Notes under the pieces: generated by a model
What the model was told of the DNA's origin: nothing
The model's input: only the letters and a program-made list of their open reading frames with translations
Databases searched by the model: none
Shown here: in pieces, positions 1,194-17,715 of the stretch
Position numbering within the stretch: position 1 is the stretch's first letter
How the letters are laid out: each line of letters starts with the position of its first letter
Assembly (NCBI GenBank): GCA_903929315.1
Contig: CAIYUC010000066.1
Coordinates: forward strand, 74,986-138,985
DNA length: 64,000 bases
Reading direction: 5' to 3'
Origin: an uncultured Bacteroidales bacterium
GTDB taxonomy: Bacteria; Bacteroidota; Bacteroidia; Bacteroidales; FEN-979
Translations under genes and position numbers: made by a program

Positions 1194-2972
1194 ATGAACA
1201 AAACTACGGTTACAGTCGGCCTGGGAAGTTGCGGGATCGCTGCAGGTGCCGGCAAGACTTATGAAAAGATCCGGGTACTTAAAGAATCCGATAAACTTGA
1301 TTTTGAGCTTAAGAAAACAAGCTGTGTAGGGATGTGTTACCGGGAGCCACTGGTAGAGATCGTTGATGAAACCGGAACATACCTCTATGGGGATGTCAAT
1401 GAAGACAGGGCAATGGAGATCATCGAAAAGCATATCCATCAGCAGGATCCGATTCGTGATTACATCGTGCAAACAGATCTGTTCGATGCTCCGGAAAATG
1501 ATTTTAATGAAGCTCAGGTAAAAATAGTTCTCCGTAATTGCGGGTATATGGACCCTGAATCGATTGAGGAATATGAGGAACGGGGCGGTTATAAGGCCAT
1601 TATAAAAATCCGTGATGAGAAGATCTCCCGTATGGATGTCATACAAACAATTTTGGATTCAGGATTACGTGGCAGAGGTGGTGGTGGCTTTTCAACGGGT
1701 ATGAAATGGAAGCTTGCCAATGGAAATAAATCGAAAGAGAAGTATGTGATCTGTAACGCCGATGAAGGAGACCCGGGAGCATTCATGGATCGTTCCGTAC
1801 TTGAAGGTGACCCGCATTCCATACTTGAAGGCATGATCATCGCTGCATTTGCGATTGAGGCAACAGAAGGGGTTATTTATTGCCGGGCAGAATACCCTTT
1901 GGCAATCAAGCGACTTAACATCGCTTTACAACAAGGCAGGGGAAAAGGTTATCTTGGGAAAAATATATTCGGTATTGAAGGCTTCGACTTTGATATTCGA
2001 ATTAAAGAAGGTGCAGGTGCTTTTGTTTGCGGTGAAGAGACTGCTCTTATTGCATCGGTTGAAGGTCTGCGTGGTATGCCGCGAAAACGGCCGCCCTTCC
2101 CGGCACAATCAGGTCTTTGGAGACAACCTACGAACATCAATAATGTTGAAACCTTTGCAAACATTCCCTGGATCCTGATCAATGGAGCCGGAGCATTCGC
2201 CTCTTATGGTACGGAGAAAAGCAAAGGTACCAAAGTTTTTGCTCTTGCTGGCAAGATCAGAAGGTCGGGGCTGGTTGAGGTGCCGATGGGAATTACCATA
2301 AAAGAGATCATCTACAAGCTTGGTGGTGGTATTAAAAACGATAAGAAATTCAAAGCGGTTCAGTTGGGTGGTCCATCGGGTGGCTGTATCCCCGAATATC
2401 TTTCGGACACTATCGTTGATTATGATTCTGTGACAGCTACCGGTGCCATTATGGGTTCAGGGGGCATGGTGGTGATGGATGAGACTACCTGTATGGTCGA
2501 TGTGGCAAAGTTCTTCCTGGATTTTACCCGGAAGGAATCATGTGGTAAATGTACCTTCTGCCGCGTCGGAACAAAACGTATGCTGGAGATCCTCGATCGC
2601 ATCACCAACAGTGAAGGACAACAAGGAGATATCGAGAAGTTGGAAGACCTGGCTTACCAGATCAAGGATAATTCTCTTTGTGGCCTTGGACAAACAGCTC
2701 CTAATCCCGTCCTCACTACGATCAAATATTTCCGGGATGAATACGAAGCACATATCTTTCATAAAAAATGCCCTGCAAAGGTTTGCCGGCCATTGCTAAC
2801 CTATGTGGTCGATCCTGAAAAATGTACCGGTTGTCTTGTCTGCCTGAAGAACTGCCCTTCAAATGCAATCACGGGTGAAAGAAAGAAAGTACATTTCATT
2901 CACCAGGAGAAATGCACGAAATGCGGGGTTTGTTATTCAAAGTGTAAATTCGAATCCATCCTGTTATCATGA
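1194..2972 (+). CDS. NuoF/HydB-type FMN- and NAD(P)H-binding iron-sulfur subunit, with an N-terminal 2Fe-2S domain and a C-terminal 2x[4Fe-4S] ferredoxin extension
   Basis: Motifs GLRGRGGGGFSTGMKW, CNADEGDPGAF, ESCGKCTFCRVGT...SLCGLGQT, CTGCLVCLKNCP and CTKCGVCYSKC. Confidence 0.9.
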   Translation: MNKTTVTVGLGSCGIAAGAGKTYEKIRVLKESDKLDFELKKTSCVGMCYREPLVEIVDETGTYLYGDVNEDRAMEIIEKHIHQQDPIRDYIVQTDLFDAPENDFNEAQVKIVLRNCGYMDPESIEEYEERGGYKAIIKIRDEKISRMDVIQTILDSGLRGRGGGGFSTGMKWKLANGNKSKEKYVICNADEGDPGAFMDRSVLEGDPHSILEGMIIAAFAIEATEGVIYCRAEYPLAIKRLNIALQQGRGKGYLGKNIFGIEGFDFDIRIKEGAGAFVCGEETALIASVEGLRGMPRKRPPFPAQSGLWRQPTNINNVETFANIPWILINGAGAFASYGTEKSKGTKVFALAGKIRRSGLVEVPMGITIKEIIYKLGGGIKNDKKFKAVQLGGPSGGCIPEYLSDTIVDYDSVTATGAIMGSGGMVVMDETTCMVDVAKFFLDFTRKESCGKCTFCRVGTKRMLEILDRITNSEGQQGDIEKLEDLAYQIKDNSLCGLGQTAPNPVLTTIKYFRDEYEAHIFHKKCPAKVCRPLLTYVVDPEKCTGCLVCLKNCPSNAITGERKKVHFIHQEKCTKCGVCYSKCKFESILLS

Positions 2973-3015
2973 TCCTGGTAAAGACTATACAAAAACACTA
3001 AAATACATTGCACAC

Positions 3016-6000
3016 ATGACAGAAAACTTTTATAATATCTTGCTCAACGGAAATATTGTTAAAGGGATTCCGGGAGAAACTATCCTTGAACTCGCCAGAC
3101 GTCTTGGAATTATCATTCCTACTCTTTGTTATGATGACCGGCTCGAACCATTTACCTCCTGTTATTTATGTGTGGTCGAAGTCGAAGGTATGCGTGGTCA
3201 TCAACCCGCATGTTCAACAAAGATTAATGAAGGAATGAAGATTGTCACCGATAATGAAGGCATCCGTAAATCGAGGAAGATAGCCTTGGAGCTGCTCCTC
3301 AGTAATCATTATGCCGATTGTGTCGCTCCCTGCAAGCAAACCTGTCCGGCAGGCGTGGATGTTCAGGGCTATATTTCACTTATCGATAAAGGGTTGTACA
3401 ACGAAGCGGTGGCGTTAATAAAAGAAACCAATCCACTTCCTGCAATTTGCGGGAGGGTTTGCGTGCGTCCCTGCGAAGCCGAATGCCGCAGGAATTTACT
3501 CGGTGAAGGATCCCCTGTCGGGATCGATTATCTGAAGCGCTTTGCATCGGATTATGATCTTGCTTCACCATCAAAATTTGTCCCCGGATTACATCCCTCT
3601 TCCGGGAAGAAGATTGCCGTGATCGGCGCCGGCCCCGGCGGATTATCGGCCGGTTACTTTCTCCAGACCAGGGGTCACCAGGTAGATATCTATGAAGCTG
3701 CTCCCAAGTCGGGAGGATGGCTCCGATATGGGATACCTGAATATCGTCTTCCAAACGATATCCTTGATCAGGAAGTGAAAAATATCACCGACCTCGGTGT
3801 TAATATTTACTACAATAAAAAATTAGGAGATACTATCAGTTACAAAGATCTCAGGGATCGCTATCATGCAGTGATCCTTACCATCGGATCCCAGAAGGGC
3901 ACAGGGATCGGGTGCGAAGGAGAAGATGCGGAAAACGTCTATTCCGGGATTGACTTCCTGAAAAACATGGAGATTACAGGACAACGTTATGATTTTACCG
4001 GCAAAACAATTGCCGTCATTGGCGGAGGTAATACTGCAATGGATTGCTGCAGGACGTCCATCCGGTGCAATGCTGAAAAGGTTTACATCATCTACCGCAG
4101 GACCGAAAAAGAAATGCCGGCGAACCCGATCGAGATTCATGAATCCAGGCTTGAAGGAGTGGAATATATGTTCCTTACGCTTCCAAAAAAAGTCAATAAG
4201 GATGATAAGGGAGCAATACAATCCATTACCTGCCTGCAGATGGAACTTGGTGAACCTGATGCTTCCGGGAGGCGAAGACCGGTTCCGATAGAAGGTTCGG
4301 AATTCGATATCAAAGTGGATTATGCACTGGCTGCTATCGGACAGAAAACCGATGTGAACTTCATTGATGATATTAACAATCATGCTGAAGGAGGAGAACT
4401 CAAGATCAATCGATGGGGGGATATTGATGTCGATAAAAATACTCTTCAAACCGGTATTCCCTCTGTCTTTGCAGCAGGCGACGGAGTTTCAGGACCGGCT
4501 ACGATCATTGAAGCGATTGCACAGGCAAAAACGGCCACGACCAGTGCACATCAATTCCTGATGGGCCTTCCAATCCTGCCTGTCAATAAACAATTTACAA
4601 GTAAAAAGGAGAATTTCAAGAAACAGATAAATGAAGACTATTTCAACCGGTTTGAAAACCAATTAAGAGAGGAAATGCCTACCCTTTCTGTAGAGATGAG
4701 AAATAACTTCAATGAAGTGGAACTTGGATACAGGAGTGAAGAAGTTGCGCAACATGAGGCAAAACGGTGCCTCGAATGCGGGTGTTCTGTTTTCTTCAAT
4801 TGTGACCTCCAAAAATATTCGACCGAATATGCTGCGGAACAGAAAAATTATAGAGGAGAATTCAAGGAATACACGGTTGATTTCAGGCATCCTTATATTG
4901 AGATAGATAATAATAAATGCATCCTTTGTTCACGCTGTGTCCGGATATGTCATGAAATAGTCGGGGCAAATGCCCTCGGATTGATTAACCGGGGTTTCGA
5001 AACAGTGGTCGCTCCCAGTCTTGGAGATTCACTGCTGGATACTACATGTGAATCATGCGGAATGTGTATATCAACCTGCCCTACAGGGGCGATAACAGAG
5101 AATGTAATCTTCAAACCGGGTCCGGGTATTACCGAAACTGCTGACACAATTTGTAATTATTGTTCCGTCGGGTGTGCTATCAGATTGCATCATAAAAAAG
5201 GCTTCATCATGGGTGTTACCGGAACTTCCGGACTTATGAACCCGGATGGCAATCTATGCAGATACCCGAAATTCGGATACAGATACCTGAATGATCCGGC
5301 AAGGATCTTACAACCGTTACTTAAGGTGAACGGAGAATTTAAAAAGGTCTCTTTTGAAGAAGCCTTTGCATGGATCAAGGATAAAATTGGAAGTGTTTCC
5401 CCGGATGAAAATGCTTTCTTTGCAGGCGCCAGATTGACGAATGAAGAGATGTACCTTATACAGAAACTTGCAAGGGCCGGTGCAAAAACCAACAATATCG
5501 GAAGTTTTCATTATCTTGGAAGAAATGAAGGATACCACAGAAATAGCGATTTTAATGTTCCTTTCGATCATATCGGGAAGGCAAGCAAAATATATTTGCT
5601 GGGAACTGAGATCAATTCTGATCATGCTGTGACCGGTTTTCTTGTCAACAATGCGAGCATCATGAAAAAGATCCCTGTAATCCTGGTTACAGCGAAAGAG
5701 AAGAATTCAATGGAACATAAAGTCGATGAAGTCATTAAGGTCAAGTCTTATTACTATTTCATAAAAGCGGTCAATCATTACCTGCTGACGAAAGGTTTAG
5801 AGAATGGGTTGTTCCTGCGCGACAGGGTTAACGGTTTTGACGTTTATAAAACCCAATTGCTTTCCGGAAATTTCGATGCTCTTGTTCAACGTGCAGGAGT
5901 GGCAGACAAAGAAGTCATTATTGAGTTTGCCGAGACTTACAATAACGAACTGAACGCAATCCTTCTATTTTCCGAGAAAGAAATTTCATCAGCAGCCAGT

Positions 6001-6738
6001 ATCGAGCTATTCAATCTTGCGATGATCACAGGTAAGTTGGGAAAGAGTTCCAATGGTCTTATATCTCTGAAAGAAAAGAATAATTCGCAGGGATTGTTCG
6101 ATATGGGAATTTATCCATCCCTTGGAACAGGCGGTATTCCTGTCAATGACCCGTTACTGATCCAAAGACTCAAAAATAAATGGGCCATTGATTCTGTCCC
6201 TATCGTGATCAATTTTAACCTGAAAGGACTTATGGATAATGGAAAGATCAGGAACCTCTTTATCTTTGGGGAAGATCCGGTCGGGTGTGCGGAGGATAAA
6301 GACGCAGTGAGGGAGATGCTCGAAAAGACAAAATTTATCATGGTCCAGGATTATTTCATGACACAAACGGCAGCAAAAGCTGACCTGATACTTCCGGCAT
6401 CATTCCCGGTCGAAACAGGAGGTAGTTACACCAATACACAAAAGGTAATACAGGAGTTCGCAGCAGCGCTACAATGCAAATTGGAAAAGTCTAATATTGA
6501 ACAGCTAACGGGTTTGTTGGAGAAGTTCGGGCTTGATGGTCATGCTGCCAGGGAAAATATATTATTGGAGATTTTTACATTGCTTCCAAAAACCAAAGAT
6601 GATTCCGGACCTGAAGATCAAAAGATGATAATGAATCTTCAATCAACAGAGGACGATGATTATAATCGTATCTTTAACTTCGGCTGTGATTCGGTTGTCA
6701 GGTATTTTGAAGAGGATTTTATTAAGGCAACAAGCTGA
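3016..6738 (+). CDS. Giant fusion subunit: 2Fe-2S ferredoxin + GltD-like NAD(P)H/FAD oxidoreductase module + NuoG-type Fe-S domains + degenerate molybdopterin-oxidoreductase-like domain
   Basis: The track ORF starts at 2863, but its first 51 codons overlap the upstream gene, so I chose the ATG at 3016 (MTENFYNILLNG). Domain order as read: CYDDRLEPFTSCYLC..PACST; then CPAGVDVQGY, ICGRVCVRPCEAECRR, VIGAGPGGLSAGYF, VIGGGNTAMDC, FAAGDG; then HPYIEIDNNKCILCSRCVRIC, CESCGMCISTCP; then CNYCSVGCAI; then an approximately 520-aa MopB-like tail. Confidence 0.8.
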   Translation: MTENFYNILLNGNIVKGIPGETILELARRLGIIIPTLCYDDRLEPFTSCYLCVVEVEGMRGHQPACSTKINEGMKIVTDNEGIRKSRKIALELLLSNHYADCVAPCKQTCPAGVDVQGYISLIDKGLYNEAVALIKETNPLPAICGRVCVRPCEAECRRNLLGEGSPVGIDYLKRFASDYDLASPSKFVPGLHPSSGKKIAVIGAGPGGLSAGYFLQTRGHQVDIYEAAPKSGGWLRYGIPEYRLPNDILDQEVKNITDLGVNIYYNKKLGDTISYKDLRDRYHAVILTIGSQKGTGIGCEGEDAENVYSGIDFLKNMEITGQRYDFTGKTIAVIGGGNTAMDCCRTSIRCNAEKVYIIYRRTEKEMPANPIEIHESRLEGVEYMFLTLPKKVNKDDKGAIQSITCLQMELGEPDASGRRRPVPIEGSEFDIKVDYALAAIGQKTDVNFIDDINNHAEGGELKINRWGDIDVDKNTLQTGIPSVFAAGDGVSGPATIIEAIAQAKTATTSAHQFLMGLPILPVNKQFTSKKENFKKQINEDYFNRFENQLREEMPTLSVEMRNNFNEVELGYRSEEVAQHEAKRCLECGCSVFFNCDLQKYSTEYAAEQKNYRGEFKEYTVDFRHPYIEIDNNKCILCSRCVRICHEIVGANALGLINRGFETVVAPSLGDSLLDTTCESCGMCISTCPTGAITENVIFKPGPGITETADTICNYCSVGCAIRLHHKKGFIMGVTGTSGLMNPDGNLCRYPKFGYRYLNDPARILQPLLKVNGEFKKVSFEEAFAWIKDKIGSVSPDENAFFAGARLTNEEMYLIQKLARAGAKTNNIGSFHYLGRNEGYHRNSDFNVPFDHIGKASKIYLLGTEINSDHAVTGFLVNNASIMKKIPVILVTAKEKNSMEHKVDEVIKVKSYYYFIKAVNHYLLTKGLENGLFLRDRVNGFDVYKTQLLSGNFDALVQRAGVADKEVIIEFAETYNNELNAILLFSEKEISSAASIELFNLAMITGKLGKSSNGLISLKEKNNSQGLFDMGIYPSLGTGGIPVNDPLLIQRLKNKWAIDSVPIVINFNLKGLMDNGKIRNLFIFGEDPVGCAEDKDAVREMLEKTKFIMVQDYFMTQTAAKADLILPASFPVETGGSYTNTQKVIQEFAAALQCKLEKSNIEQLTGLLEKFGLDGHAARENILLEIFTLLPKTKDDSGPEDQKMIMNLQSTEDDDYNRIFNFGCDSVVRYFEEDFIKATS

Positions 6739-6750
6739 AATTTATAAACT

Positions 6751-6914
6751 CACCCCTGTTGTGGGGCTGTCTGAAATATCTTTGTGATCTTTGTGTAAAA
6801 CATTGTGACCTTTGTGGTTAATTCATAAAAAACTTTACCACAATGAACACTAAGAATGCACAAAGCACACAAAGAAGGAAAAAATATCATACTTTATACT
6901 TTTTAGTCAACCCC
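6751..6914. repeat. About 165-bp palindromic 'word' element (copy E1), bounded by GGGGCTGTCT...AGTCAACCCC, with arms made of CTTTGTG/CATTGTG words
   Basis: Left arm ctttgtgatctttgtgtaaaacattgtgacctttgtggtta pairs with right arm taccacaatgaacactaagaatgcacaaagcacacaaag. It is colinear with the copy at 18822..18981 and starts 12 nt after a stop codon. Confidence 0.75.
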
Positions 6915-6947
6915 AAATGAAAAAATATACATATAAAACGTACTACT

Positions 6948-7403
6948 ATGAAAGAATTCAAATCCATCGATGACATCCTCGAATTCGCCATCAATGCCGA
7001 ACAGGAAGCAGTTGACTTTTATACAAATTTATCGGGCTGGTCGAAGAACGAACAAATGAAAAAAGTATTTGTCGATTTTGCCGGGGAAGAGATGAAGCAT
7101 AAGGCGAAACTTCTGGAGGTAAAAGAAAACAGGTCTTTTAGGATACCCGAAGGGAAAGTCAGGGATCTTAAAATATCTGACTATGTTGTTGATGTTAAGC
7201 CAACACCGGATATGACATACCCGGATGCCCTTGTGCTGGCCATGAAAAAAGAGAAGGATGCTTTCAGGCTTTACCTGCTGCTTTCGGAAGAGTCATCTGA
7301 TCCGGTGATGAAAAACCTTTTCCTTTCGCTGGCGCAGGAAGAATCACGTCACAAATTGCGGTTTGAACTGGAATATGATGATTTCATCCTAAAGGAAAAT
7401 TAA
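6948..7403 (+). CDS. Ferritin-like diiron (rubrerythrin-family) protein
   Basis: 151 aa with two E..H motifs (GEEMKHKAKL, QEESRHKLRFE). Its stop overlaps the next start (TAATG). Confidence 0.75.
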   Translation: MKEFKSIDDILEFAINAEQEAVDFYTNLSGWSKNEQMKKVFVDFAGEEMKHKAKLLEVKENRSFRIPEGKVRDLKISDYVVDVKPTPDMTYPDALVLAMKKEKDAFRLYLLLSEESSDPVMKNLFLSLAQEESRHKLRFELEYDDFILKEN

Positions 7404-10369
7404 TGCCGACAAAAAAAATCCTGGATCCGAAGGAGTACTATTTCATTGACACCTCCTTTAATCTTCTGATGAAAAAGAGGATCTACCAGGTATTGCTCAT
7501 CTCCAGTACATATGATGCCTTCATGCTTGAGGAAGATGGCAGGATTGATGAGACCATCTTCATGGAATACGTTTCCCTGAGCCTTCGTTATGCACCGCAA
7601 TTTATTAAGGTGACTTCTGAAGAAGAAGCCTTTGAAGTGCTCGAAGATAAACGTATTGAGCTTGTAATTTCCATGTTAAGCCTTGAGAAATCAACAACTT
7701 TCGATCTTGCCAAACGGATCAGGCAAAATTATCCGAAGATTCCCATTGTCATTCTGACTCCATTCTCGAGGGAAGTTAATCTTAAACTTACCGAAAAAAA
7801 ACTGGCAGGTGTCGATTATGTTTTCAGCTGGCTTGGAAATGCGGATATTCTTCTTGCAATCATCAAGCTGATCGAAGATAAGATGAACATCGATCAGGAT
7901 GTGAAACAAGGGATCCAGGCCATTTTACTGGTTGAGGACTCGATCCGGTTTTATTCAAGCTATCTTCCGAATATCTACAAGATCATGTTTAAGCAGTCCA
8001 AGGGTTTCATGACCGAGGGACTGAATGAACACCAGAAAATGATACGGATGAGGGGACGTCCGAAGATCCTTCTTGCCACAAACTATGAAGAAGCCGTCGA
8101 TATGTTCGAAAAATATAAGAACAATCTCTTGGGCGTCATTTCAGATATTAGCTTTTGTAAAGGCGGGGAAACTGATAAAACTGCAGGGATCCAGTTTGTA
8201 AAGCTGATCAGGTCCGAAGATGAATTCATGCCCATTTTGTTACAATCCGCGGATGCAGGTAAAGAGGCAATCGCAAAAGAGCTTAAAGTGGGGTTCATCA
8301 ATAAATTATCAAAAGCGCTTTCCATTGAACTCCGGAATTTTATCAATGAAAATTTTTTTTTCGGTGATTTTGTCTTCATAGATCCGTTAACAGGAAATGA
8401 AATAACCAGGGCGGCCAACTTAAAATCATTGCAGGATAAAATATTTGAGATTCCGGATAATTCTCTTCTCTATCATATGCAACGAAACCATTTCTCGAAA
8501 TGGCTAAACGCCCGTACCTTGTTTCCCATAGCAGAAATGTTCCGTGATATATCGGTTTCCCAGTTTCATGACATGGATGAAGCCAAGAGATACATTTTTG
8601 ATTCCATTACCGCATTCCGCATCAATAAAGCAAGAGGAGTAATTGCCGAATTTGACAGGGAACGGTATGATCAATATTTATCTTTTGCAAGAATAGGCGA
8701 GGGGTCGATCGGGGGCAAAGCCAGGGGGCTTGCATTCCTTGATTCAATGGCGAAACGTAACCGTCTGACATATAAATTTGAGGATGTTGTAATAACGATT
8801 CCCAGGACAGTCGTCCTTGGTACGGAGATCTTCGATGAATTCATGGAAGAAAACCATCTTCATGAATATGCACTTTCCGATCGTACCGACAAAGATATTC
8901 TTGCCCATTTTGTCAAAGCACGGCTGCCATTCAGCATACATGAAGATCTCTATACCTTTATTTCCTGTGTCAATAATCCCATAGCAGTGCGCTCCTCAAG
9001 CCTGCTTGAAGATTCCCATTACCAGCCTTTTGCAGGTATCTATTCCACCTACATGATCCCCAATATAAAAGTAAACGAAAGGATCATGATCCAGAAATTG
9101 ACGGAGGCCATTAAAAGTGTATATGCCTCTACGTTTTACAGGGACAGCAAATCATATATGGCCGCCACGCTGAATGTTATTGATGAAGAAAAAATGGGTG
9201 TGGTGCTCCAGGAAGTTACCGGCAGACAATATGGCGACCGTTTCTATCCTGCGATCTCAGGCGTCGCACGATCCATCAATTTCTATCCGATCGAACCTGA
9301 AAAACCGGAAGACGGGATTGCAAATATTGCCTTCGGCCTGGGGAAATATATTGTCGATGGTGGCAATGGCCTCAGGTTCTCACCAAAGTATTCTAAAAAG
9401 ATACTGCAACTTTCTACCCCGGAATTCGCCCTGAGTGAAACTCAACAAACATTTTTCGCCCTCGATCTGAAGGTTGAAAGTTTTATTCCGAATATCGACG
9501 ATACAATTAACTTATTGAAACTAAAGATTAAAGAAGCCGAAAACGATAGTGCTTTAAAAATGGTTGCTTCCACATTTGATTATGACAGCCATGTGATACG
9601 TGACGGAACTTTAACACCTGGAAAGAGAATCATCACCTTCTCACAGGTTTTAAATCATAATACTTTTCCCCTTGCAGAGATATTGCAAACTGTGCTTGAA
9701 ATCGGTCAGAGGGAGATGGGTAAACCGGTTGAAATCGAATTTGCTGTGAATCTCGATATGCCTAAAAACGAACCGAAAGTTTTCTCGCTTTTACAGATCA
9801 GGCCGATCGCCGGGAAAAATGAAACTGTAAACCTGAACCTTGATGAGATCTCCCGCGAAGACACCATCCTTCTGTCGGATTCTGCCCTTGGTAACGGGAT
9901 CATCAATAATATTGCCGATTTCGTATATGTGAAACCCGAATCTTTTAATGCTGCAAAAAGTCAGGAGATCACGCATCGTCTTGAATTGATCAATGATAAA
10001 TTCCTTTCGGAAAAGAAATTCTATATACTTATTGGTCCTGGCCGCTGGGGTTCAAGTGATCCATGGCTTGGAATCCCTGTTCGCTGGCCGCAAATATCTG
10101 CAGCCCGTCTGATCGTTGAATCAGGATTAGCCAATTACCGCATCGACCCGAGCCAGGGAACACACTTTTTCCAAAACCTGACCTCCTTTCGTGTGGGTTA
10201 TTTTACCATTAATCCGTATATTAACCAGGGATTTTATGATGTTGACTATCTGAATCAGGCACCTACATATTACGAAGACGAATATATCAGGCATATAAGG
10301 TTTGATAAGCCTTGCAGAATAGAAATCGACGGGAAAAAGAATATTGGGGTGGTTTATAAGCCTAAATAA
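7403..10369 (+). CDS. Receiver-domain-linked PEP/pyruvate-binding (PPDK_N / PEP-synthase ATP-grasp) protein with an unassigned C-terminal module
   Basis: 988 aa. Two receiver-like modules (the second has ILLVEDS...GVISDISF). IGGKARGLAFL, VRSSSLLEDSH and LLQIRPI are typical of the PpsA/PPDK nucleotide-binding domain. The C-terminus carries ILIGPGRWGSSDPWLGIPVRWPQIS...GTHFFQNLTS. Confidence 0.85.
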   Translation: MPTKKILDPKEYYFIDTSFNLLMKKRIYQVLLISSTYDAFMLEEDGRIDETIFMEYVSLSLRYAPQFIKVTSEEEAFEVLEDKRIELVISMLSLEKSTTFDLAKRIRQNYPKIPIVILTPFSREVNLKLTEKKLAGVDYVFSWLGNADILLAIIKLIEDKMNIDQDVKQGIQAILLVEDSIRFYSSYLPNIYKIMFKQSKGFMTEGLNEHQKMIRMRGRPKILLATNYEEAVDMFEKYKNNLLGVISDISFCKGGETDKTAGIQFVKLIRSEDEFMPILLQSADAGKEAIAKELKVGFINKLSKALSIELRNFINENFFFGDFVFIDPLTGNEITRAANLKSLQDKIFEIPDNSLLYHMQRNHFSKWLNARTLFPIAEMFRDISVSQFHDMDEAKRYIFDSITAFRINKARGVIAEFDRERYDQYLSFARIGEGSIGGKARGLAFLDSMAKRNRLTYKFEDVVITIPRTVVLGTEIFDEFMEENHLHEYALSDRTDKDILAHFVKARLPFSIHEDLYTFISCVNNPIAVRSSSLLEDSHYQPFAGIYSTYMIPNIKVNERIMIQKLTEAIKSVYASTFYRDSKSYMAATLNVIDEEKMGVVLQEVTGRQYGDRFYPAISGVARSINFYPIEPEKPEDGIANIAFGLGKYIVDGGNGLRFSPKYSKKILQLSTPEFALSETQQTFFALDLKVESFIPNIDDTINLLKLKIKEAENDSALKMVASTFDYDSHVIRDGTLTPGKRIITFSQVLNHNTFPLAEILQTVLEIGQREMGKPVEIEFAVNLDMPKNEPKVFSLLQIRPIAGKNETVNLNLDEISREDTILLSDSALGNGIINNIADFVYVKPESFNAAKSQEITHRLELINDKFLSEKKFYILIGPGRWGSSDPWLGIPVRWPQISAARLIVESGLANYRIDPSQGTHFFQNLTSFRVGYFTINPYINQGFYDVDYLNQAPTYYEDEYIRHIRFDKPCRIEIDGKKNIGVVYKPK

Positions 10370-10372
10370 AAA

Positions 10373-10396
10373 GTCACAAAGTCACAAAGTCAAAGG
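10373..10396. repeat. Tandem octamer GTCACAAA x3, starting 3 nt after a stop codon
   Basis: The direct read is gtcacaaagtcacaaagtcaaagg. Confidence 0.8.
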
Positions 10397-10434
10397 TTTA
10401 GTAAATTTCTTATCAATCATTATTTTTACTGTAA

Positions 10435-11760
10435 ATGAAACGAGTTTTGATCCTGTACACTTTCGTTGCTGCTCTGGGCGGACTGGTATTTGGTTTCGAT
10501 ACGGCTGTGATCAACGGCGCATTACCTTTCTTTACAAAGCATTTTGATCTGAGCCATGCAATGCAGGGTTGGGCCGTTAGTTCAGCACTGATCGGGTGCA
10601 TTTTCGGAGCTTTATTCATCGGCCGACCCGGTGATACATATGGCCGGAGGTATATGCTGAAAGTTCTGGCCATTCTTTTCATTGTATCTTCCATCGGTAC
10701 GGGGATGGCTTCGAGTCTGACTATTTTCGTGATCTTCCGCTTCATCGCGGGCCTCGCAATCGGAGGCGCTTCTGTCCTTTCACCGATGTATATCTCAGAG
10801 ATCGCACCGCCGAAGCAGAGAGGACGTTTAACAGCCACTTTCCAGTTGGCCATAGTGATCGGAATATTGGTTGCCTTCTTTTCTGATTATCTCCTTATTA
10901 ACACCGGGCCTGAAAATTGGAGATGGATGTTCATCGCGGGTTTAATTCCCGGACTGGCGTTATTTATCTTGTTATTCTTCGTCAGTGAGAGCCCGCGCTG
11001 GCTGGTAAAGATGGGCCGGATGGAAGCAGCCCTTGATGTCATTACCTCTGTAAACACTGAAGCTGATCCTCACCAAACTTTGCGTGAGATTCAGGATTCC
11101 ATTAACAATGAGGTCATCGGGAAAAATATCTACCTTTTCAAAAAACCGTACCTGAAGCTTGTCATGATCGGCATTGCGGTAGGAATGTTCAATCAATTCA
11201 CCGGGATCAATATTATCATGTATTACGCCACCGATATATTCCGGTCAGCGGGCTTCTCAACAAACTCAGCGATTGGTCAAACAGTGATCATTGGTCTGAC
11301 AAATCTGCTCTTTACGCTCATCGCCATGTCGATCATCGACAAAGTAGGACGGAAGACATTACTCCTGGTGGGATCAATTGGTATGACGATCTTTCTCGGA
11401 TTGTTTGCATTCCTTTTTAAAAGTGGCAATACCGGTGGTTTCTGGATCCTTGGTCTGCTGATCGGTTTTATTGCATTTTTTGCCGCTTCACAGGGCGCTG
11501 TTATCTGGGTGTTGCTTTCGGAAATGTTCCCGAATAACATACGTGCCCGTGGTTCATCCATCGGCTCTTTCTCCCATTGGTTCTTCAATGCTTTGCTGTC
11601 CTTCCTTTTTCCGGTCGTGACCGGCGCATTCGGGGTGGGGAATGCCTTTGTGTTTTATGCTTTTGCAACATTTGTGAGTTTCTTCTTCTTCTTGTTCTTC
11701 CTCAAAGAAACGAAAGGTCGATCCCTTGAAGAGTTAGAAAAACATATGCTGGCGAAATAA
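10435..11760 (+). CDS. Sugar-porter family MFS transporter
   Basis: 441 aa with 12-TM character. Motifs GRPGDTYGRR, PESPRWL and PETKGRSLEELE are sugar-porter signatures. Confidence 0.9.
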   Translation: MKRVLILYTFVAALGGLVFGFDTAVINGALPFFTKHFDLSHAMQGWAVSSALIGCIFGALFIGRPGDTYGRRYMLKVLAILFIVSSIGTGMASSLTIFVIFRFIAGLAIGGASVLSPMYISEIAPPKQRGRLTATFQLAIVIGILVAFFSDYLLINTGPENWRWMFIAGLIPGLALFILLFFVSESPRWLVKMGRMEAALDVITSVNTEADPHQTLREIQDSINNEVIGKNIYLFKKPYLKLVMIGIAVGMFNQFTGINIIMYYATDIFRSAGFSTNSAIGQTVIIGLTNLLFTLIAMSIIDKVGRKTLLLVGSIGMTIFLGLFAFLFKSGNTGGFWILGLLIGFIAFFAASQGAVIWVLLSEMFPNNIRARGSSIGSFSHWFFNALLSFLFPVVTGAFGVGNAFVFYAFATFVSFFFFLFFLKETKGRSLEELEKHMLAK

Positions 11761-11786
11761 CAAATAGCTTTTTCCACCGCTAAGCA

Positions 11787-11961
11787 CCTCACCCCTAAGG
11801 GGTTGTCTAATAAGTTGGAAAGTTAATGTTTCTCGCTGAGTTTCGCTGAGTTAAACGCAGAGTCACGCAAAGTTAAAACTCTTGTTTTCAACATTCTGCG
11901 AAAATCTGCGATTAATCTGCGGAAATCTGCGAGAAAAAAAAGAAACTTATTGGACACCCCC
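11787..11961. repeat. About 175-bp palindromic 'word' element (copy E2) with the same termini as E1/E3 but arms made of CGCTGAG/CGCAGA words
   Basis: The left terminus cctcacccctaaggggttgtctaataagtt matches the reverse complement of the right terminus, gggggtgtccaataagttt. Arm tttctcgctgagtttcgctgagttaaacgcagag pairs with ctgcgattaatctgcggaaatctgcgagaaa. Confidence 0.7.
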
Positions 11962-11977
11962 AATCTTTTGTTCGTCT

Positions 11978-12170
11978 CAGCTCGCGCGCGTTTGTAACGC
12001 GTGCGTAATCCTAATCTCTATTTGGCGCGCGTCTCTGACGCGTGACACATTTTTCAGCTCGCGCGCGTTTGTAACGCGTGCGTAATCCTAATTTCTATTT
12101 GGCGCACGTCTCTGACGCGTGACACATTTTTCAGCTCGCGCGCGTTTGTAACGCGTGCGTAATCCTAATC
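11978..12170. repeat. REP tandem array: 77-bp unit x2.5, each unit carrying one A-type and one B-type REP hairpin
   Basis: The unit start cagctcgcgcgcg recurs at 11978, 12055 and 12132. A-type is gcgcgcgtt-tgt-aacgcgtgc and B-type is gcgcgcgtc-tct-gacgcgtg. Confidence 0.9.
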
Positions 12171-15100
12171 TTTCAAACAACGAACCGAGAAAGCATCCGT
12201 CTTAAAAGCCGGATATACCGACACACTTGGATTCGGATCGTTCATTCCGTGTGCCCAGGCTTTCAACGTTCCATGGGCTGTGGAGGACCAAAAGAATGTC
12301 GCGAACCCCTGATAATCCCAATTTTTATTAAGATACCTGGCACCGGAAAGAATAGCATTAAACCCTGAAAATCCTGAATATTTTAACGGACTGCCTGCAA
12401 AGCCATTACTGATATAATTTGCAAACAAGGTATTCCAATCAGCTTCAGTAGGAACGTGCCATCCCGGCGGGCACATTCCCTGGGTTGAAACGGTTTCGTC
12501 ATATTGCATGACTTCATCCCACTGGTAATACGTTTGTTGTCCGCAGTTAGCAACCGCATCATTATAACAATACTTCTCCCAAATGCAGTTATCCCTCTGG
12601 GAGGTATTTCCTGGAATAAGAGTTCCATAATCAAGATTTGCAGCCATCCAGCATTGGGAACCGATCTGGACAGTAGGATAAACCTTGTTATCTCTTACAT
12701 CTGTGATATTGTTTCCACAAGCAAAAACCGGTGCTGCAACAATTGAAATTGCATGTGTGGCACTGGCACTGCAAAGTGCAGCATTGGTGTAAGTATAACT
12801 CAGTATTTTTAAACCTATCCCAGCCGTTGAAGGTGTGAAAATGCCAGTTAAAGAATTTACTCCCGGCCCTGAATAAGTTCCTCCCAATGGTATCCCGCCT
12901 TTAAGTTTTAAGGGCTGTGCACTGTTTGTGGTAATTGTATCGAAGCAAGCTGTAAATGTAACCACTGAAACTAATGTGCCACTCATGATAATGGTATTTG
13001 AGGTTGCAGGATTCCCCGTGACACATGCAAGGTTAGACGTCAGGATGCAAGATACCAGATCGCCGGATGCCGGATTATAGGTATATGTGGGAGAATTTGT
13101 TCCTTTATTGATTCCGTTGACTTTCCATTGATATGCCGGGTTTGCGCCGCCATTCACGGGGGTTGCTGTGAACGTAACTGAATTTCCGGGGCAGAATGGA
13201 TTGGTTGAGGCGGAAATGGTTATCCCTGCCGGGAGGTTTGCATTAACGACCATCGTTATTGAATTCGATGTGGCAGGATTTCCAACCGGACAGGCAATAT
13301 TTGATGTCATCACACAGGATACAACATCTCCGTTGTTTGGTGAATAAGAATAAACTGGATTATTCGGCCCAACATTGATCCCGTTTACTTTCCATTGATA
13401 TGATGGTAATGTGCCTCCATTGGTTGGGGTAGCTGTAAATGTCACAGAGCTTCCCTGACAGAATGGATTAGCGGATGCTGAAATAACAACACTGACTGGA
13501 AGATTAGGATTGACGGTCATGGTAATCGTATTACTTGTCGCTGGATTTCCAGTAGGACATAGGATATTGGAGGTAAGAACACAATTAACGATATCCCCGT
13601 TTACCGGTGGGTAGCTATATATTGGATTATTTGTACCGACAATTAATCCATTTACCTTCCATTGATATACAGGTAAAGTTCCTCCATTAATCGGTAATGC
13701 AGTATAAATAACAATCGTTCCCGAACAGACCGGGTTTGCAGACGATGAAATGGTAACAGTTACAGGATTCAGTGGGTTGACGATCATTGTTACAACATTG
13801 GAAGTAGCCGGGTTCCCACTGGCACATAAGGCGTTTGACGTGAGTATGCAATTAATAACATCTCCATTGACCGGTGTGTAGCTATAAATAGGATTGTTTG
13901 TGCCAACAATTATTCCATTAACTTTCCACTGATAAACCGGGGTTGTGCCGCCATTGACGGGAGTTGCCTGGAACGTCACGGACGTTCCACTACAAACGGG
14001 ATTTGCTGATGGTGAAATTGTAACACTGACTACCACATTGGTATTTTCAACCATCGTAATTGCATTTGATGTTGCAGGATTTCCTATTGGACAAGGAATG
14101 CTTGAATTCAAAACACATGAAACGACATCTCCGTTATTGGGAACAAATGAGTACACCGGACTACTCAGGCCGACATTTCCCCCATTTACTTTCCACTGAT
14201 ATAATGGTGTTGTACCTTCATTCATTGGAATAGCTGTGAAAGTAACAGTTGAATCTTGGCAGAAAGGATTAGATGAGGCACTAATGGAGAGACTGACCGC
14301 AAGGATTGGATTGACAATCATAGTTATGACATTGGATGTATCCGGGTTATTCATGATGCAGCCGGTGATCGAAGAAGTCAATATACACCTTACTAAATCG
14401 TTGTTTAATGGTGTATAAGAAAAAGAGGGAGAACTGGCTCCTATGTTGATCCCATTAACCTGCCACTGATAGAAAGGATTCCCTCCTCCGTTTGATGCTG
14501 TTGAATTAAACGTAACCTGTGTTCCTTCACAAACATTATTTGATGTGGCAGTGATGGTTATATTGACGGCCGGGCTTGGAGTTACTGTGACATTATAATC
14601 AGTGGGTGAGTCTGCAGAACATCCGTTGGCATCCGTAAAATTGACATAAACATGCTGCGTTCCTGCAGCATTCCAGGTAACCGTTACCGTATTATCCGTG
14701 GTTGAGCCCCCTGATGTTATAACTCCTCCTGCTGAAACACTCCACTGGTAATTCGATTTCCCTGAAGCTGTGGAATAGACCTTTCCCGGGCCGGCACAGG
14801 TATTATTGGGGCCGGAAATTACAGGAACAGGGGCTTGGTTTACCGTAACATATAAATATGCTGTAGCACCGGAATCACACTTATTTAATGCTTGTACTCC
14901 GATTGTTCCTGAAATGGCAGAATTGCTGATATCCACTATAATACTTGGAGTTCCTACACCGCTCGTAAGAGTGAAGCCCGCTGGTAATGTCCAGATATAA
15001 TTCACAGCATGGGTAAGTGATGGAATTGAATAACTAATCCCGTTTGAAGGCTTACATACATTGACCGGTCCGGTAATGGGGCCGGCAGTATCGATTGGCC

Positions 15101-17351
15101 AGCAATCTATGAATTTTTCAAGAAAAGCATCTGTGCCTCCGCCAATGTTTACCTGATGACCATTTGGAGTGCTAATGTTGTCAATAGATGTAGTATAACC
15201 AGCAAGATAAATAGTATCCTCCAGTTCATAGTTAATTGAATTTGCATTGTCATACGATCCTCCTCCAAAGTAGCTTCCCCATATTCTTTGTCCGGTCGAG
15301 TCAAATTTTACAAAGTACGAATCATAATTGCCGGCCAAAGAAGGTTGGTATGAATTAAGAGTGGAAATCCCAGTGGGTGAATTTGTCGATCCACAAAAGA
15401 ATATTTTTCCATGAAGATCAGATGCAATGGCTGTCATATAATCCGATTGTGACCCGCCATAGTATGTGCCCCATATCCTTTGTCCTGAATTGCTGAATTT
15501 AGCAATAAACCCGTCATAGGGACCACCACCATAGGATTGCTGAAAACAGCCGGGACTGGCAATACCGGTGGTAGATTTCGTAGTCCCTGCAATGTAGATA
15601 TATCCATTTTGATCGCTTGAAATATCATCCCCTTCGTCCCACAATGATCCTCCGTAATAAGTTGCCCATAAACGCTGCCCTGAAGGGTTAAAAGCTGCTA
15701 CGAAAGCATCGCCTTGGCCACCTCCATAATTTTGCTGATATGCAGATGGACTTGCAATGCCTACGGTATCATTAGTTTGTCCTATTACATATAGGTTCCC
15801 TGCACTATCTGTAGTGCACCTTGTAAAGAGGGTAGCAAAATCCCCGACCCCATAATAATATGTTCCCCATTGTCGTACTCCATTACTGTCAAATTTGGCA
15901 ATAAATCCAGCAGCGCCGCAATCCGTACAATAATTTGACTCATATGTGCCGGGAGTTGCAATACCTGAATCTGCAGTTGTCTTGCCTGCTATAAAAGTAT
16001 TCCCGGATCTGTCTGCCGCTAACGCACCGGGAGACGCTCCCCATGTTCCACCTATTTCAGCATCACCATTTCCCCCGTAATATGTTGACCAAAGCAGTTC
16101 ACCATTTGTATTGAATTTCGCGAGAAAAGCATTCCACGGTGTACCTGTGTATATAGTCTGAAAAGCTCCGGGGGTTGCAATTCCTGAATCCGAGGTAGTA
16201 ATTCCATCGATATATATATTCCCGTTGAGATCTGCTACGCAAGCTTCAACCCTCTCACCCCCGAGAATATCACCACAAAAATAGGTTCCCCATTGCCTGA
16301 CGCCGTCAGAATTGAATTTTACCAGGAATCCTTTATCTCCAAGTCCGATTTTGGTAGATTGATATGCGCTGTCAGTTGCAATATTATCTGTTGATTGCGT
16401 AACACCGCATAAAAAAACGTTTCCCTTCTGATCAACCGTTGAGCTTGTCGCATAATCCGAATTAAGTCCGCCGTAATAAGTTCCCCAAAGCCTTATTGAT
16501 GTGGGATCAATAATCAAAACTGAATTTTCCGGAATAGTTCTATCAACTGAAAAGCCATAAACTTCACTATTCGTCTTTCGGAAGTGTGCTTTGATATCAA
16601 TTTTGGAATCATTCACTAAATAATAGCTTTCCGGGATCAATTCTTCAACATCACCAAATACAGTCCCGAATTTTAGGGTGCCCTGCATTAAAGAAATATA
16701 GTCGGGACCGGCGATCGTCAATCGTATATCATTGATATTGCCTCCCGGACGGATAACAAAATTGTATTTATATCCATGTTCTTCATTTGTAAAAAATTCA
16801 AGATCAATATCCGGGTAGATGTTTTTGTAAATGATTTTGCTGTATTGTCTTACATTTCTGATCCCTTCAGGATGGGCAGAAGCTGTGAAATAATTGAAGT
16901 ACTCTGTCAACGGGTTTGATGGGATTATTTGGCATTCGGGGTTGGTTCCTTCAAGAGTGATATCTATCCTGTGGAATTGATATTCCTTAAATAGTGAATC
17001 AGAATGATGTTTAGTATTCACAGAATTGTGATTTGTTGAAATTAAAGGATGTGGATTAGGTTTATATTCAACTGAATAAACATCATAGCTAAATCCATCC
17101 CTACGTAACTGTACATTAAACCCCGGTGTATTCAGCAAATACAAAACCCCCGGATTGGGATTGTTCTTCTGATCAATGATCTGGCCTTTGTTTTCGATGA
17201 AGGCTGAGGTAGACTTTAAAAAGCCTTTGGTTTTAGTGCCTTCTGAGAAGGCCTGTTGGGAGAATAGAAACCAATAAAAAATAGTACAAGTCAAAATGTA
17301 AAATGCAAATTGCAAAGTGCAAAATGATTTTACGATTTTACACTTTACCAT
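12165..17351 (-). CDS. Very large secreted surface protein/adhesin: signal peptide, SBBP-type beta-propeller repeats, six Ig-like repeats, C-terminal FISUMP domain
   Basis: Reiterated WGTYYGG...D...GIATPGA.Q units; six approximately 88-aa repeats (NP.C.G..VTF.ATP.NGG..P.YQWKVNG). The C-terminus DVRDNKVYPTVQIGSQCWMAANL...CPPGWHVPTEADW...FWSST...FSVRCLKD matches the Fibrobacter succinogenes major paralogous domain. The start is ATG 17351 (MVKCKIVK...) or ATG 17402. Confidence 0.85.
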   Translation of the reverse strand: MVKCKIVKSFCTLQFAFYILTCTIFYWFLFSQQAFSEGTKTKGFLKSTSAFIENKGQIIDQKNNPNPGVLYLLNTPGFNVQLRRDGFSYDVYSVEYKPNPHPLISTNHNSVNTKHHSDSLFKEYQFHRIDITLEGTNPECQIIPSNPLTEYFNYFTASAHPEGIRNVRQYSKIIYKNIYPDIDLEFFTNEEHGYKYNFVIRPGGNINDIRLTIAGPDYISLMQGTLKFGTVFGDVEELIPESYYLVNDSKIDIKAHFRKTNSEVYGFSVDRTIPENSVLIIDPTSIRLWGTYYGGLNSDYATSSTVDQKGNVFLCGVTQSTDNIATDSAYQSTKIGLGDKGFLVKFNSDGVRQWGTYFCGDILGGERVEACVADLNGNIYIDGITTSDSGIATPGAFQTIYTGTPWNAFLAKFNTNGELLWSTYYGGNGDAEIGGTWGASPGALAADRSGNTFIAGKTTADSGIATPGTYESNYCTDCGAAGFIAKFDSNGVRQWGTYYYGVGDFATLFTRCTTDSAGNLYVIGQTNDTVGIASPSAYQQNYGGGQGDAFVAAFNPSGQRLWATYYGGSLWDEGDDISSDQNGYIYIAGTTKSTTGIASPGCFQQSYGGGPYDGFIAKFSNSGQRIWGTYYGGSQSDYMTAIASDLHGKIFFCGSTNSPTGISTLNSYQPSLAGNYDSYFVKFDSTGQRIWGSYFGGGSYDNANSINYELEDTIYLAGYTTSIDNISTPNGHQVNIGGGTDAFLEKFIDCWPIDTAGPITGPVNVCKPSNGISYSIPSLTHAVNYIWTLPAGFTLTSGVGTPSIIVDISNSAISGTIGVQALNKCDSGATAYLYVTVNQAPVPVISGPNNTCAGPGKVYSTASGKSNYQWSVSAGGVITSGGSTTDNTVTVTWNAAGTQHVYVNFTDANGCSADSPTDYNVTVTPSPAVNITITATSNNVCEGTQVTFNSTASNGGGNPFYQWQVNGINIGASSPSFSYTPLNNDLVRCILTSSITGCIMNNPDTSNVITMIVNPILAVSLSISASSNPFCQDSTVTFTAIPMNEGTTPLYQWKVNGGNVGLSSPVYSFVPNNGDVVSCVLNSSIPCPIGNPATSNAITMVENTNVVVSVTISPSANPVCSGTSVTFQATPVNGGTTPVYQWKVNGIIVGTNNPIYSYTPVNGDVINCILTSNALCASGNPATSNVVTMIVNPLNPVTVTISSSANPVCSGTIVIYTALPINGGTLPVYQWKVNGLIVGTNNPIYSYPPVNGDIVNCVLTSNILCPTGNPATSNTITMTVNPNLPVSVVISASANPFCQGSSVTFTATPTNGGTLPSYQWKVNGINVGPNNPVYSYSPNNGDVVSCVMTSNIACPVGNPATSNSITMVVNANLPAGITISASTNPFCPGNSVTFTATPVNGGANPAYQWKVNGINKGTNSPTYTYNPASGDLVSCILTSNLACVTGNPATSNTIIMSGTLVSVVTFTACFDTITTNSAQPLKLKGGIPLGGTYSGPGVNSLTGIFTPSTAGIGLKILSYTYTNAALCSASATHAISIVAAPVFACGNNITDVRDNKVYPTVQIGSQCWMAANLDYGTLIPGNTSQRDNCIWEKYCYNDAVANCGQQTYYQWDEVMQYDETVSTQGMCPPGWHVPTEADWNTLFANYISNGFAGSPLKYSGFSGFNAILSGARYLNKNWDYQGFATFFWSSTAHGTLKAWAHGMNDPNPSVSVYPAFKTDAFSVRCLKD
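12985..14580 (-). repeat. Intragenic tandem array of six approximately 265-bp Ig-like domain repeats
   Basis: The repeat consensus is visible in the translation. The boundaries are approximate. Confidence 0.8.
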
Positions 17352-17360
17352 TTTACACTT
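17283..17360. repeat. Word-type palindrome (TGTAAAATG/TGCAAA words) overlapping the adhesin start region
   Basis: tgtaaaatgcaaattgcaaagtgcaaaatga faces ttttacgattttacactttaccattttaca. Confidence 0.6.
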
Positions 17361-17364
17361 GGTC

Positions 17365-17373
17365 GGGGGGGGG
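17365..17373 (-). repeat. Homopolymeric C9 tract (G9 on the + strand) between the two candidate adhesin start codons
   Basis: Direct read tcgggggggggat. The tract is 13 nt upstream of ATG 17351 and in frame downstream of ATG 17402. Confidence 0.9.
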
Positions 17374-17445
17374 ATATTTTGTGTAATTGTACAAGCACAC
17401 ATCCGGAAAGAAGAGTTTCTGATTATTAGATTTTCACCCTAACAA

Positions 17446-17453
17446 CAAAGATA
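17446..17453 (-). promoter_or_regulatory. Candidate Bacteroidota sigma-A -7 box (TATCTTTG) for the adhesin gene
   Basis: The reverse complement of caaagata matches TAnnTTTG. It lies 44 nt upstream of ATG 17402. Confidence 0.35.
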
Positions 17454-17525
17454 AGAAATATATAATGAAATCAGGCGAAGTAATTCAATAATTTTTTTAT
17501 TAATACAATTATCGGATTTATTAAA

Positions 17526-17549
17526 GGAATGCAGGAATGCAGGAATGCA
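17526..17549. repeat. Tandem octamer GGAATGCA x3, followed by degenerate words
   Basis: The direct read is ggaatgcaggaatgcaggaatgcagtaattcagaattacc. Confidence 0.8.
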
Positions 17550-17627
17550 GTAATTCAGAATTACCAAAACAAGTTCCTTGTAACTTATAATTCAAATTTC
17601 AACCTCATCTTTCATAATAAAAAAGCA

Positions 17628-17715
17628 TAACCACAATGAACACTATGAAATGACAAGGGACACAAAGATATCTTCCTTGTGTCCTTTGTGTAAAGCATAG
17701 TGTCATTGTGGTTAT
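17628..17715. repeat. Approximately 88-bp hairpin built from the ACCACAATGAACACTA / CACAAAG words
   Basis: ataaccacaatgaacactatgaaatgacaagggacacaaag faces ctttgtgtaaagcatagtgtcattgtggttat. Confidence 0.7.

Follow-up and report, generated by a model that had tools for sequence, protein, structure and literature searches.

A dispersed family of hairpin-forming repeats with shared inverted ends and variable interiors in Bacteroidota and related phyla

How can repeats within one genome keep the same ends while the sequence between those ends is built from different words? The question is raised by three elements, E1 (6748-6914), E2 (11787-11961) and E3 (18822-18981), each a long imperfect palindrome, in the window analysed here, i.e. 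the whole 64-kb stretch of DNA. A preliminary description had seen in them three full copies of one family with common termini, and this is borne out by their sequences, by the matches between their ends and by hairpins of the form C4-loop-G4, which occur in the window at E1, E2 and E3 only. The source genome is not among the GTDB representatives; homologous proteins are found in relatives labelled Bacteroidales or Bacteroidota by their sources.

Architecture of the three elements

Four segments recur in what follows: a is CCTCACCCC outside the left end, b is the left inverted end, c is the reverse complement of b at the right end, and d is GGGG(T/A)GAGG outside the right end. E1 opens with an accessory motif a (ACTCACCCC, 6748-6756, plus strand), whose C4 is able to pair with the terminal G4 of the element across a loop formed by 6757-6762. 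The core unit that follows (6763-6914, plus strand, 152 bp) comprises a left inverted end (GGGGCTGTCTGAAATA, 6763-6778, plus strand), a left arm of four YTTTGTG words, an apical loop around 6819-6836, a right arm of CACAAWG words, an additional A-rich segment around 6873-6897 and a right inverted end (CTTTTTAGTCAACCCC, 6899-6914, plus strand). In E2, motif a (CCTCACCCC, 11787-11795, plus strand) is separated by the loop TAA (11796-11798) from a core of 163 bp (11799-11961, plus strand) with GGGGTTGTCTAATAAG as its left and CTTATTGGACACCCCC as its right end; one arm consists of CGCTGAG/CGCAGAG/CGCAAAG words and the other of four TCTGCG words spaced 10-11 nt, followed by an A-run. This core is homologous to elements at two further loci (L095 and L003). 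The E3 core (18822-18969, plus strand, 148 bp) is colinear with that of E1 and starts 13 nt past the stop codon of the gene at 18389-18808, and its accessory motif lies on the far side, at 18972-18981 on the minus strand (GGGGGTGAGG as read on the plus strand, CCTCACCCCC on the minus strand). Because CCTCACCCC stands to the left of E1 and E2 and, on the minus strand, to the right of E3, the E3 interior is flipped relative to this marker. The distances from CCTCACCCC to the nearest stop codon agree with those given earlier: 9 nt for E1 (gene 2863-6738), 26 nt for E2 (MFS transporter gene 10435-11760) and 0 nt for E3 (gene 18982-21648, minus strand).

The bounding ends are 16-17 bp long and read GGGG(Y)TG(W)CT(A)A(W)AAG and its reverse complement; the pattern GGGG[CT]TG[AT]CT[ACT]A[AT]AAG describes this end on both sides, and the end motif of the family, found in inverted pairs, is GGGGYTGWCTAAWAAG. 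Three exact matches to GGGGYTGTCTRA occur in 64 kb, one per element and each at the left end, where by our estimate ~0.03 would be expected by chance, so that the sharing of termini is above chance level; the reverse-complement ends of E1-E3 match with one or two mismatches. As had been proposed, E1 and E3 are colinear (88% identity over 60 nt and 83% over 93 nt), and E2 has the ends and the design in common with them but not the interior.

In computed folds each element is a single long interrupted hairpin closed by GGGG:CCCC, with folding energies of -43.5, -65.5 and -56.2 kcal/mol for E1, E2 and E3, and z-scores against dinucleotide shuffles of -4.1, -7.4 and -5.4, respectively. Rfam covariance models gave no match at gathering thresholds over the 64 kb, and nothing on the elements at E <= 5 over positions 1-25000. 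The arms are rich in repeated words: positions whose 6-mer, with strands collapsed, has three or more occurrences in the interior number 10 in E1, 20 in E2 and 15 in E3, versus 1.8, 0.5 and 0.5 in shuffled sequences. The words lie on one strand in one arm and their complements in the other, and their spacing is 10-11 nt in E2 (positions 97, 107, 118 and 128) and in another family member (L048, positions 123, 133, 144 and 154).

Partial or foldback versions had also been reported at three further places. Word arms are present at all three, but recognisable GGGG/CCCC ends are not. A permuted foldback relative at 17600-17725 consists of a loop and a CACAAWG arm followed by a YTTTGTG arm, and is thus 'inside-out' with respect to E1; a half element at 22595-22645 (plus strand) has only a YTTTGTG/CATTGTG arm and the start of a loop, and lies among GC-rich hairpin repeats beside a RAYT-like gene; and a diverged word hairpin at 37628-37760 (plus strand) has five CACAAAG words on its right arm without the family's inverted ends.

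The RAYT-like gene is part of a REPtron-like unit (21766-22935). Its ORF, of the RAYT-type Y1 HUH kind (21898-22572, minus strand), has NHLH, WQ and YIHQNP motifs and fits the Bacteroidetes-specific RAYT subclass 2.6 defined in PMC6006769. It is flanked on both sides by the GC-rich hairpin repeat GGCGCGCGTCTCTGACGCGTGCC rather than by GGGG...CCCC elements, and its first 36 codons probably belong to one such repeat. Further GC-rich hairpin repeats of the GGCGCGCGTCTCTGACGCGTGCC type occur at 11975-12171, 24263-24532, 34318-34349 and 37814-37839, as 77-nt units (three, directly after E2), as 90-nt units (three) or as single copies, and some pairs are inverted, as in REPIN/BIME arrangements.

Open frames run through the window elements (6750-6890 on the minus and 6759-6821 on the plus strand, e.g. 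MWGCLKYLCDLCVKHCDLCG), and gene callers have placed small ORFs of 41-61 aa without Pfam domains in elements of related genomes (L092, 1614-1799; L079, 1504-1629). Such low-complexity 'hypothetical proteins' are probably annotation artefacts of the repeat family.

Copies, ends and neighbouring genes

A search for further copies, as the preliminary description had suggested, was productive. A metagenome scan with a pattern taken from the left arm of E1 and E3 yielded 13 contigs, which stand for 10 additional loci whose flanks are unrelated, and 13 distinct loci of the E1/E3 subfamily were counted overall; the copies come from metagenome contigs in which closely related species are possibly mixed. 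The repeated unit of this subfamily is 152 bp long, has sharp GGGG-to-CCCC bounds, and shows 85-90% identity between copies and ~90% mean column identity. The aligned copies have in common four YTTTGTG words, an AT-rich apical loop, a CACAAWG arm, the A-rich segment and the right end, and in one of them (L076) the ~25-nt A-rich segment before the right end is exactly deleted. Several short contigs of the same population, whose encoded proteins are identical to window proteins, break off inside E1 (L063, L065), E2 (L001) or E3 (L060, L061), as is expected from the effect of a multi-copy repeat on short-read assemblies. On another contig (L064), an interior identical to that of E1 is preceded not by the E1 neighbour but by an FtsX gene and a separate CCTCACCCC-loop-GGGG; the contig represents one more copy, a recombinant or a chimera that arose by way of such a copy.

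Beyond the subfamily, a scan of species-representative genomes for the a-b pattern gave 58 loci, a total no greater than chance, since by our estimate ~120 chance matches were expected, and the matches in high-GC genomes are accordingly noise. We kept only matches with an AAAAG extension and a matching right end. About 25 elements combine this extension with a right end that matches at a distance of 90-220 nt and with a hairpin interior, the interiors being other than those of E1-E3. Their hosts are Bacteroidales, other Bacteroidota, Ignavibacteria, a MAG labelled Chlorobiaceae, Calditrichia and a few others, and a 109-bp family member is present in four phage-like contigs. Words of the CTTTGTG, CTTTGCG, CTCTGTG, TCTGCG and CCGTG types recur in the interiors of this superfamily, while in about half of its members the interior consists of unrelated small hairpins without words. 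A blastn search of a plasmid collection found no match, and literature searches on the end sequences, Bacteroidetes MITEs, REPs and stem-loop families found no description of the family. These data confirm that E1-E3 are true copies of a dispersed, non-coding, multi-copy repeat family in Bacteroidota and related phyla.

The ends themselves are informative. Every copy of the E1/E3 subfamily has TGTCT at its left and TGACT at its right end, and the unit therefore has polarity. In the superfamily, paired end positions change in concert: at position 8, 12 elements have A:T and 6 have T:A, the same behaviour is seen at positions 11 and 13, and the covariation score is 0.134 versus 0.100 in shuffles (2 of 500 reach the observed score), falling to at most 0.073 when the partners are slid. 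CCTCACCCC, which had been described as a terminus of the element, must be reassigned, for it sits outside the 152-bp repeated unit as an accessory motif that may be present on one side, on both sides or on neither. The window elements each have a or d, never both. In 273 kb of loci that were not chosen for the motif, 10 of the 18 occurrences of a or d abut an element end. A stand-alone CCTCACCCC-loop-GGGGTGAGG hairpin was absent from 538 kb, where the sole regex match is a divergent CCTCCCCC/GGGGAGAAG pair (L068), and one stand-alone example is found in a phage contig (L086). The idea that the element inserts into an abundant, free-standing target hairpin of this kind thus finds no support in the 538 kb, the one phage example remaining. 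Derivation of a from a decayed right end, as in a tail-to-head tandem, is ruled out, because a is constant while right ends vary. We infer that CCTCACCCC outside the end is either a preferred target or the outer end of the element.

Within the 13 aligned subfamily copies, variation is unevenly distributed. With columns fixed by the search pattern left out, 13 of 52 paired columns are variable versus 44 of 72 unpaired ones (Fisher p = 1e-4), and for the right arm by itself 9 of 36 paired versus 25 of 42 unpaired columns are variable (p = 0.003). There are no compensatory double substitutions among these copies. Either pairing or the words themselves are maintained, for which selection or arm-to-arm correction could be the cause, and the conserved stems could reflect conserved words, e.g. 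binding sites, rather than pairing.

Most copies lie close to the 3' ends of genes. A stop codon is found 12-71 nt away from 10 of 12 subfamily copies, and both orientations with respect to the upstream gene are seen among the copies. At elements that have an a or d and a known neighbouring gene, the motif usually follows the stop codon of that gene in sense orientation, as CCTCACCCC does in E1, E2, E3 and three other loci (L064, L073, L077); exceptions are L067 and one motif in L094. Two subfamily copies are in divergent, promoter-side spacers, and several members in other phyla appear between divergent ORFs by crude ORF calling, so that the association with 3' ends is a bias and not a rule. 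A terminator scan of positions 6000-19500 found no T-tract terminator at the a-b hairpins or at the element ends. Matches to sigma-70-type promoters inside the right end were set aside as not meaningful for Bacteroidota promoters.

Occupied sites, empty sites and turnover of interiors

The sites of E1 and E3 could be followed into related genomes through homologues of the rubrerythrin gene next to E1 and through the DUF3788 gene at E3. In an 87% relative (L092, identical in L093), a family member occupies the E1 site between flanks that can be aligned with those of the window. Its a motif (AATTCACCCC), its left end (GAAACTGTCTGAAAAT, with a decayed G4) and its right end (CAGACAACCC) all align with E1, but its interior does not, and has CGCAAAG/CTTTGCG words instead of CACAAAG. 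At the E3 site, the motif at the stop codon of the 888-aa gene is kept (GGGGGTGAGG in the window, GGGGTTGAGG in L094 and GGGGAGG in L095), such that a GGGGTGAGG motif beside this stop codon is conserved in three species, while the element itself is of the E1 type in the window, clearly of the E2 type in L095 and something else in L094. Alignments at these two orthologous sites show that interiors turn over while the ends stay. The sharing of ends between elements with swapped word sets, which the preliminary description had found unusual, is therefore real and stronger than was claimed, because it is seen between related species as well as within one genome.

Other comparisons bear on how the turnover may occur. 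The orientation of the interior relative to a or d differs between E1 and E3, between E2 and the L095 element, between L033 and L047, and between L042/L045 and L055/L056. The E1 left end (CTGTCTGAAATAT) departs from the subfamily consensus (TTGTCTAAAAAGT) and resembles the orthologous L092 end, a hint, resting on few positions, that the interior and right end of E1 may have been overwritten from another copy. The number of word units in an array is not the same on two contigs of one locus (L074 versus L075). Ectopic conversion, inversion and slippage would be the mechanisms suggested by these differences. As a separate observation, the E3-site spacer of L094 (1813-2124, an 83% relative) contains four CCTCACCCC/GGGGTGAGG motifs and two CCCTCCCC-TTGA-AGGGGAGGG hairpins that flank an AT-rich core as an inverted pair, which may be another architecture of the superfamily.

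Presence of the elements is variable. In a relative with 74% identity (a 5.27-Mb genome with the same gene order) the spacer at the E1 site is 40 nt long versus 209 nt with E1 in the window. A different 87% relative (the P0008 contig) has a gap of 75 nt at the E1 site and only 78 nt after the transporter gene, and hence carries neither E1 nor E2. The E1 site is thus empty in both L080 and the P0008 contig and the E2 site in the latter, with flanks too diverged to place a junction; the relatives compared yielded no closely related empty site with alignable flanks. An alignment of copies with relatives, as had been advised, accordingly provides empty sites at E1 and E2 but no target-site duplications: there is no direct repeat of any length in the flanks of the aligned subfamily copies, and no duplication at ~20 family members in other phyla. 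The E1 site of a 93% relative (L079, 1484-1679) lacks the element and carries a solitary GGGGGAAGCCGAAGACGGGGGTGAGTT, whose loop-plus-d module also adjoins elements in a lake Bacteroidetes MAG (L011, L052).

No source of mobility was apparent in the regions covered. The window genes are housekeeping genes and the one RAYT-like gene, and the absence of a cognate transposase noted earlier extends from the window to the most frequent families near ~35 related loci; mobile-element, transposase, recombinase and Y1 families are absent from the 25 Pfam families found most often in the 144 ORFs next to 33 loci. No kb-scale pair of family ends that would mark a longer element was found in ~650 kb of loci, and no end pair encloses more than 420 bp in any locus checked. 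The earlier comparison with MITEs thus holds for the small size, non-coding nature, inverted ends, multiple copies and variable presence of the elements, but fails for target duplication, and a longer element with the same ends did not turn up in the loci checked. Because neither was found, we infer transposition rather than observe it. Ends of Tn3/Tn21 and Tn5, which we take to bear a loose resemblance to the family ends, were rejected as relatives, the likeness being too loose and the expected 2-9-bp duplications missing. Ends of the IS5 family (PMC4596501) were rejected on the same grounds, i.e. too loose a resemblance and absence of the 2-9-bp duplications expected.

Gene order beyond the transporter gene (window 11760-12165) differs from that in the ERZ1426844 and P0008 contigs. 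Relatives, and one contig encoding an identical protein, have an 84-aa gene and a radical-SAM gene after the transporter gene, where the window has E2, a cluster of hairpin repeats and a 1745-aa gene in convergent orientation. The difference suggests that a rearrangement broke, or that sequences were joined in assembly, at the repeats.

Possible origins and known relatives

We would give roughly an even chance to the proposal that E1-E3 belong to a non-autonomous, dispersed, hairpin-forming repeat family, similar to MITEs or REPINs, that persists at gene 3' ends and whose interiors turn over. Copies would be made by an enzyme supplied in trans, which may act on a folded single strand, since insertions lack a target duplication, and they would persist mainly 10-70 nt downstream of stop codons. 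A resident copy would keep its ends while two processes renew its interior. Copies would recombine ectopically or convert one another, with the shared ends as anchors and at times with inversion, and the word units of ~10-11 nt would slip, one arm then serving to correct the other. Elements that have ends in common but not their word sets would be the outcome of this turnover. Orthologous sites at which ends are retained and interiors replaced, and the lack of target duplications, point to mobilisation or recombination other than standard MITE cut-and-paste. Selection or arm-to-arm correction would maintain word-to-word pairing; at mRNA 3' ends the element is therefore probably active, or else tolerated, as a long interrupted hairpin, and is not a classical terminator.

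Several other explanations account for parts of the evidence. A RAYT-type HUH (Y1) enzyme that works on single strands could mobilise the elements as REPIN-like sequences, by recognising the C4-loop-G4 end hairpins and cleaving and rejoining the folded strand without target duplication. The lack of duplications at the loci examined is what such an enzyme would leave; both ends read C4-loop-G4 on one strand wherever a and d are present, the entire unit is a hairpin, the elements are intergenic and near gene 3' ends, and the window encodes a RAYT of subclass 2.6 with a half element (22595-22645) inside its repeat cluster. That gene is flanked by GGCGCGCGTCTCTGACGCGTGCC, however, which is a different repeat, no conserved 5' tag such as GTAG or CGTC stands beside the C4/G4 hairpin, a and d are missing from many copies of one subfamily, and Y1 genes are not prominent among the 144 neighbouring ORFs; we consider this route unlikely. 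It is similarly doubtful that the elements are RNA or DNA structures selected by the host at gene 3' ends, be it as mRNA protectors, termination or pause hairpins or decoys, that spread by gene conversion and not by transposition. Their proximity to stop codons, the sense orientation of CCTCACCCC after them, the conservation of the accessory motif at one gene's 3' end in three species, the constancy of paired columns beside freely varying spacers and the strong folding energies would all be explained, but no end has a T-tract terminator signature, copies occur in both orientations and in part between divergent genes, and E1 lies within a conserved co-directional gene string in which relatives make do with a 40-nt spacer. 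Compensatory changes within the subfamily and an Rfam family are likewise wanting.

The words might instead be arrays of protein-binding sites (C-R-C-W-R-A-G, four per arm and about one helical turn apart) for an oligomerising nucleoid, partition-like or regulatory factor. The 10-11-nt spacing in E2 and L048, the invariance of words beside variable spacers and the recurrence of related word types in many genomes are in keeping with this, but words differ between copies in one genome (E1/E3 versus E2), about half of the family members have wordless interiors, and no candidate binding protein is linked to the elements in the window or among the neighbouring ORFs, which makes the explanation quite improbable. 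Still less credit can be given to invertons, in which a site-specific invertase would flip the segment between the inverted repeats. Both interior orientations relative to an outside marker do occur (E1/E3, E2/L095, L033/L047, L042 and L045 versus L055 and L056), but these flips are between different loci or species, the interior is in a single orientation on all contigs that cover E1 (L062-L065) or E3 (L060, L061), inversion of a nearly palindromic interior would change little, and neither the window nor the neighbouring-ORF families examined include an invertase gene. A more speculative reading, which we think has only a slim chance of being correct, is that CCTCACCCC after stop codons and the terminal G4 form a hairpin-junction attachment site at which a single-strand- or hairpin-specific recombinase swaps hairpin 'cassettes' in either orientation without target duplication. 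If so, Bacteroidota, Ignavibacteriota and relatives would share mobile hairpin elements of a new class, site-directed and TSD-less, with word arms phased at ~10.5 nt that are continuously rebuilt.

Seen as a non-autonomous repeat family, the elements have counterparts in other bacteria. ERIC/IRU, Correia (NEMIS) and RUP elements of proteobacteria and pneumococci are imperfect palindromes of 100-170 bp with conserved ends that occur in several genera and are co-transcribed with neighbouring genes; each family has a fixed interior, and Correia and ERIC duplicate TA. Our elements resemble these in size, palindromic form and conserved ends, but have no sequence similarity to them, exchange their interiors and carry a C4/G4 hairpin motif outside the end. 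Integron attC sites combine a conserved hairpin base with a variable distal part, recombine as folded single strands without target duplication and lie at gene 3' ends. The resemblance to attC is one of architecture only, as R/L boxes (GTTRRRY), an integrase and a cassette array are lacking here.

REP and REPIN elements with RAYT are reportedly the subject of a 2011 study by Bertels and Rainey. Like the present family, they are extragenic hairpin doublets of ~100-150 nt, often near gene 3' ends, that are present many times per genome, leave no target duplication and are less conserved in the middle (PMC6006769). REPINs, however, consist of two short REP palindromes with a conserved tag, whereas the 16-17-bp ends here are untagged and not self-palindromic, the only palindromic part being the accessory C4-loop-G4 hairpin, and the RAYT gene of a REPtron is flanked by its own repeats, unlike the RAYT-like gene of the window. 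BrickBuilt, a MITE of Porphyromonas gingivalis (PMC4596501) and thus of the same phylum, is also small, non-coding, multi-copy and intergenic, with terminal inverted repeats and an interior of short repeated units in variable number. Its ends (GAGACCTTTGCA) match IS5-family elements of its own genome, its filled and empty sites reveal a duplicated GAAA, and its repeats are direct 23-mers and not two complementary arms of 7-nt words, whereas no matching IS and no target duplication are found here.

The family thus works like MITEs and REPINs but is filed under neither, because a MITE should have a target duplication and a matching IS, neither of which was found in the loci examined, and the RAYT-like gene that a REPIN assignment would call for lies within a different repeat. 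Modular palindromic repeats are a known kind; what is new is the combination of ends shared across phyla, a C4/G4 hairpin motif after stop codons, absence of target duplication and exchange of interiors at orthologous sites. Should the distribution in our sample hold for the FCB group at large, the family would cause recurrent assembly breaks with contigs ending inside copies, as well as spurious small ORFs in annotation, e.g. the 61-aa 'gene' inside L092. Many genes would also be followed directly by long hairpins, in organisms about whose transcript 3' ends little is known.

The window also contains tandem arrays of short words, at 17537-17560, 46253-46320, 50611-50664, 55162-55274, 56406-56442 and 58077-58144. 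They are made up of GATGCCG-type heptamers, GTTATTCAGTG 11-mers and GGAATGCA 8-mers, and several begin at or a few nucleotides from stop codons. These arrays resemble the intergenic heptamer repeats discussed in PMC4679880, and in a related genome (L080, 16215-16245) four GAAGAAT units stand at the stop codon of a transporter gene.
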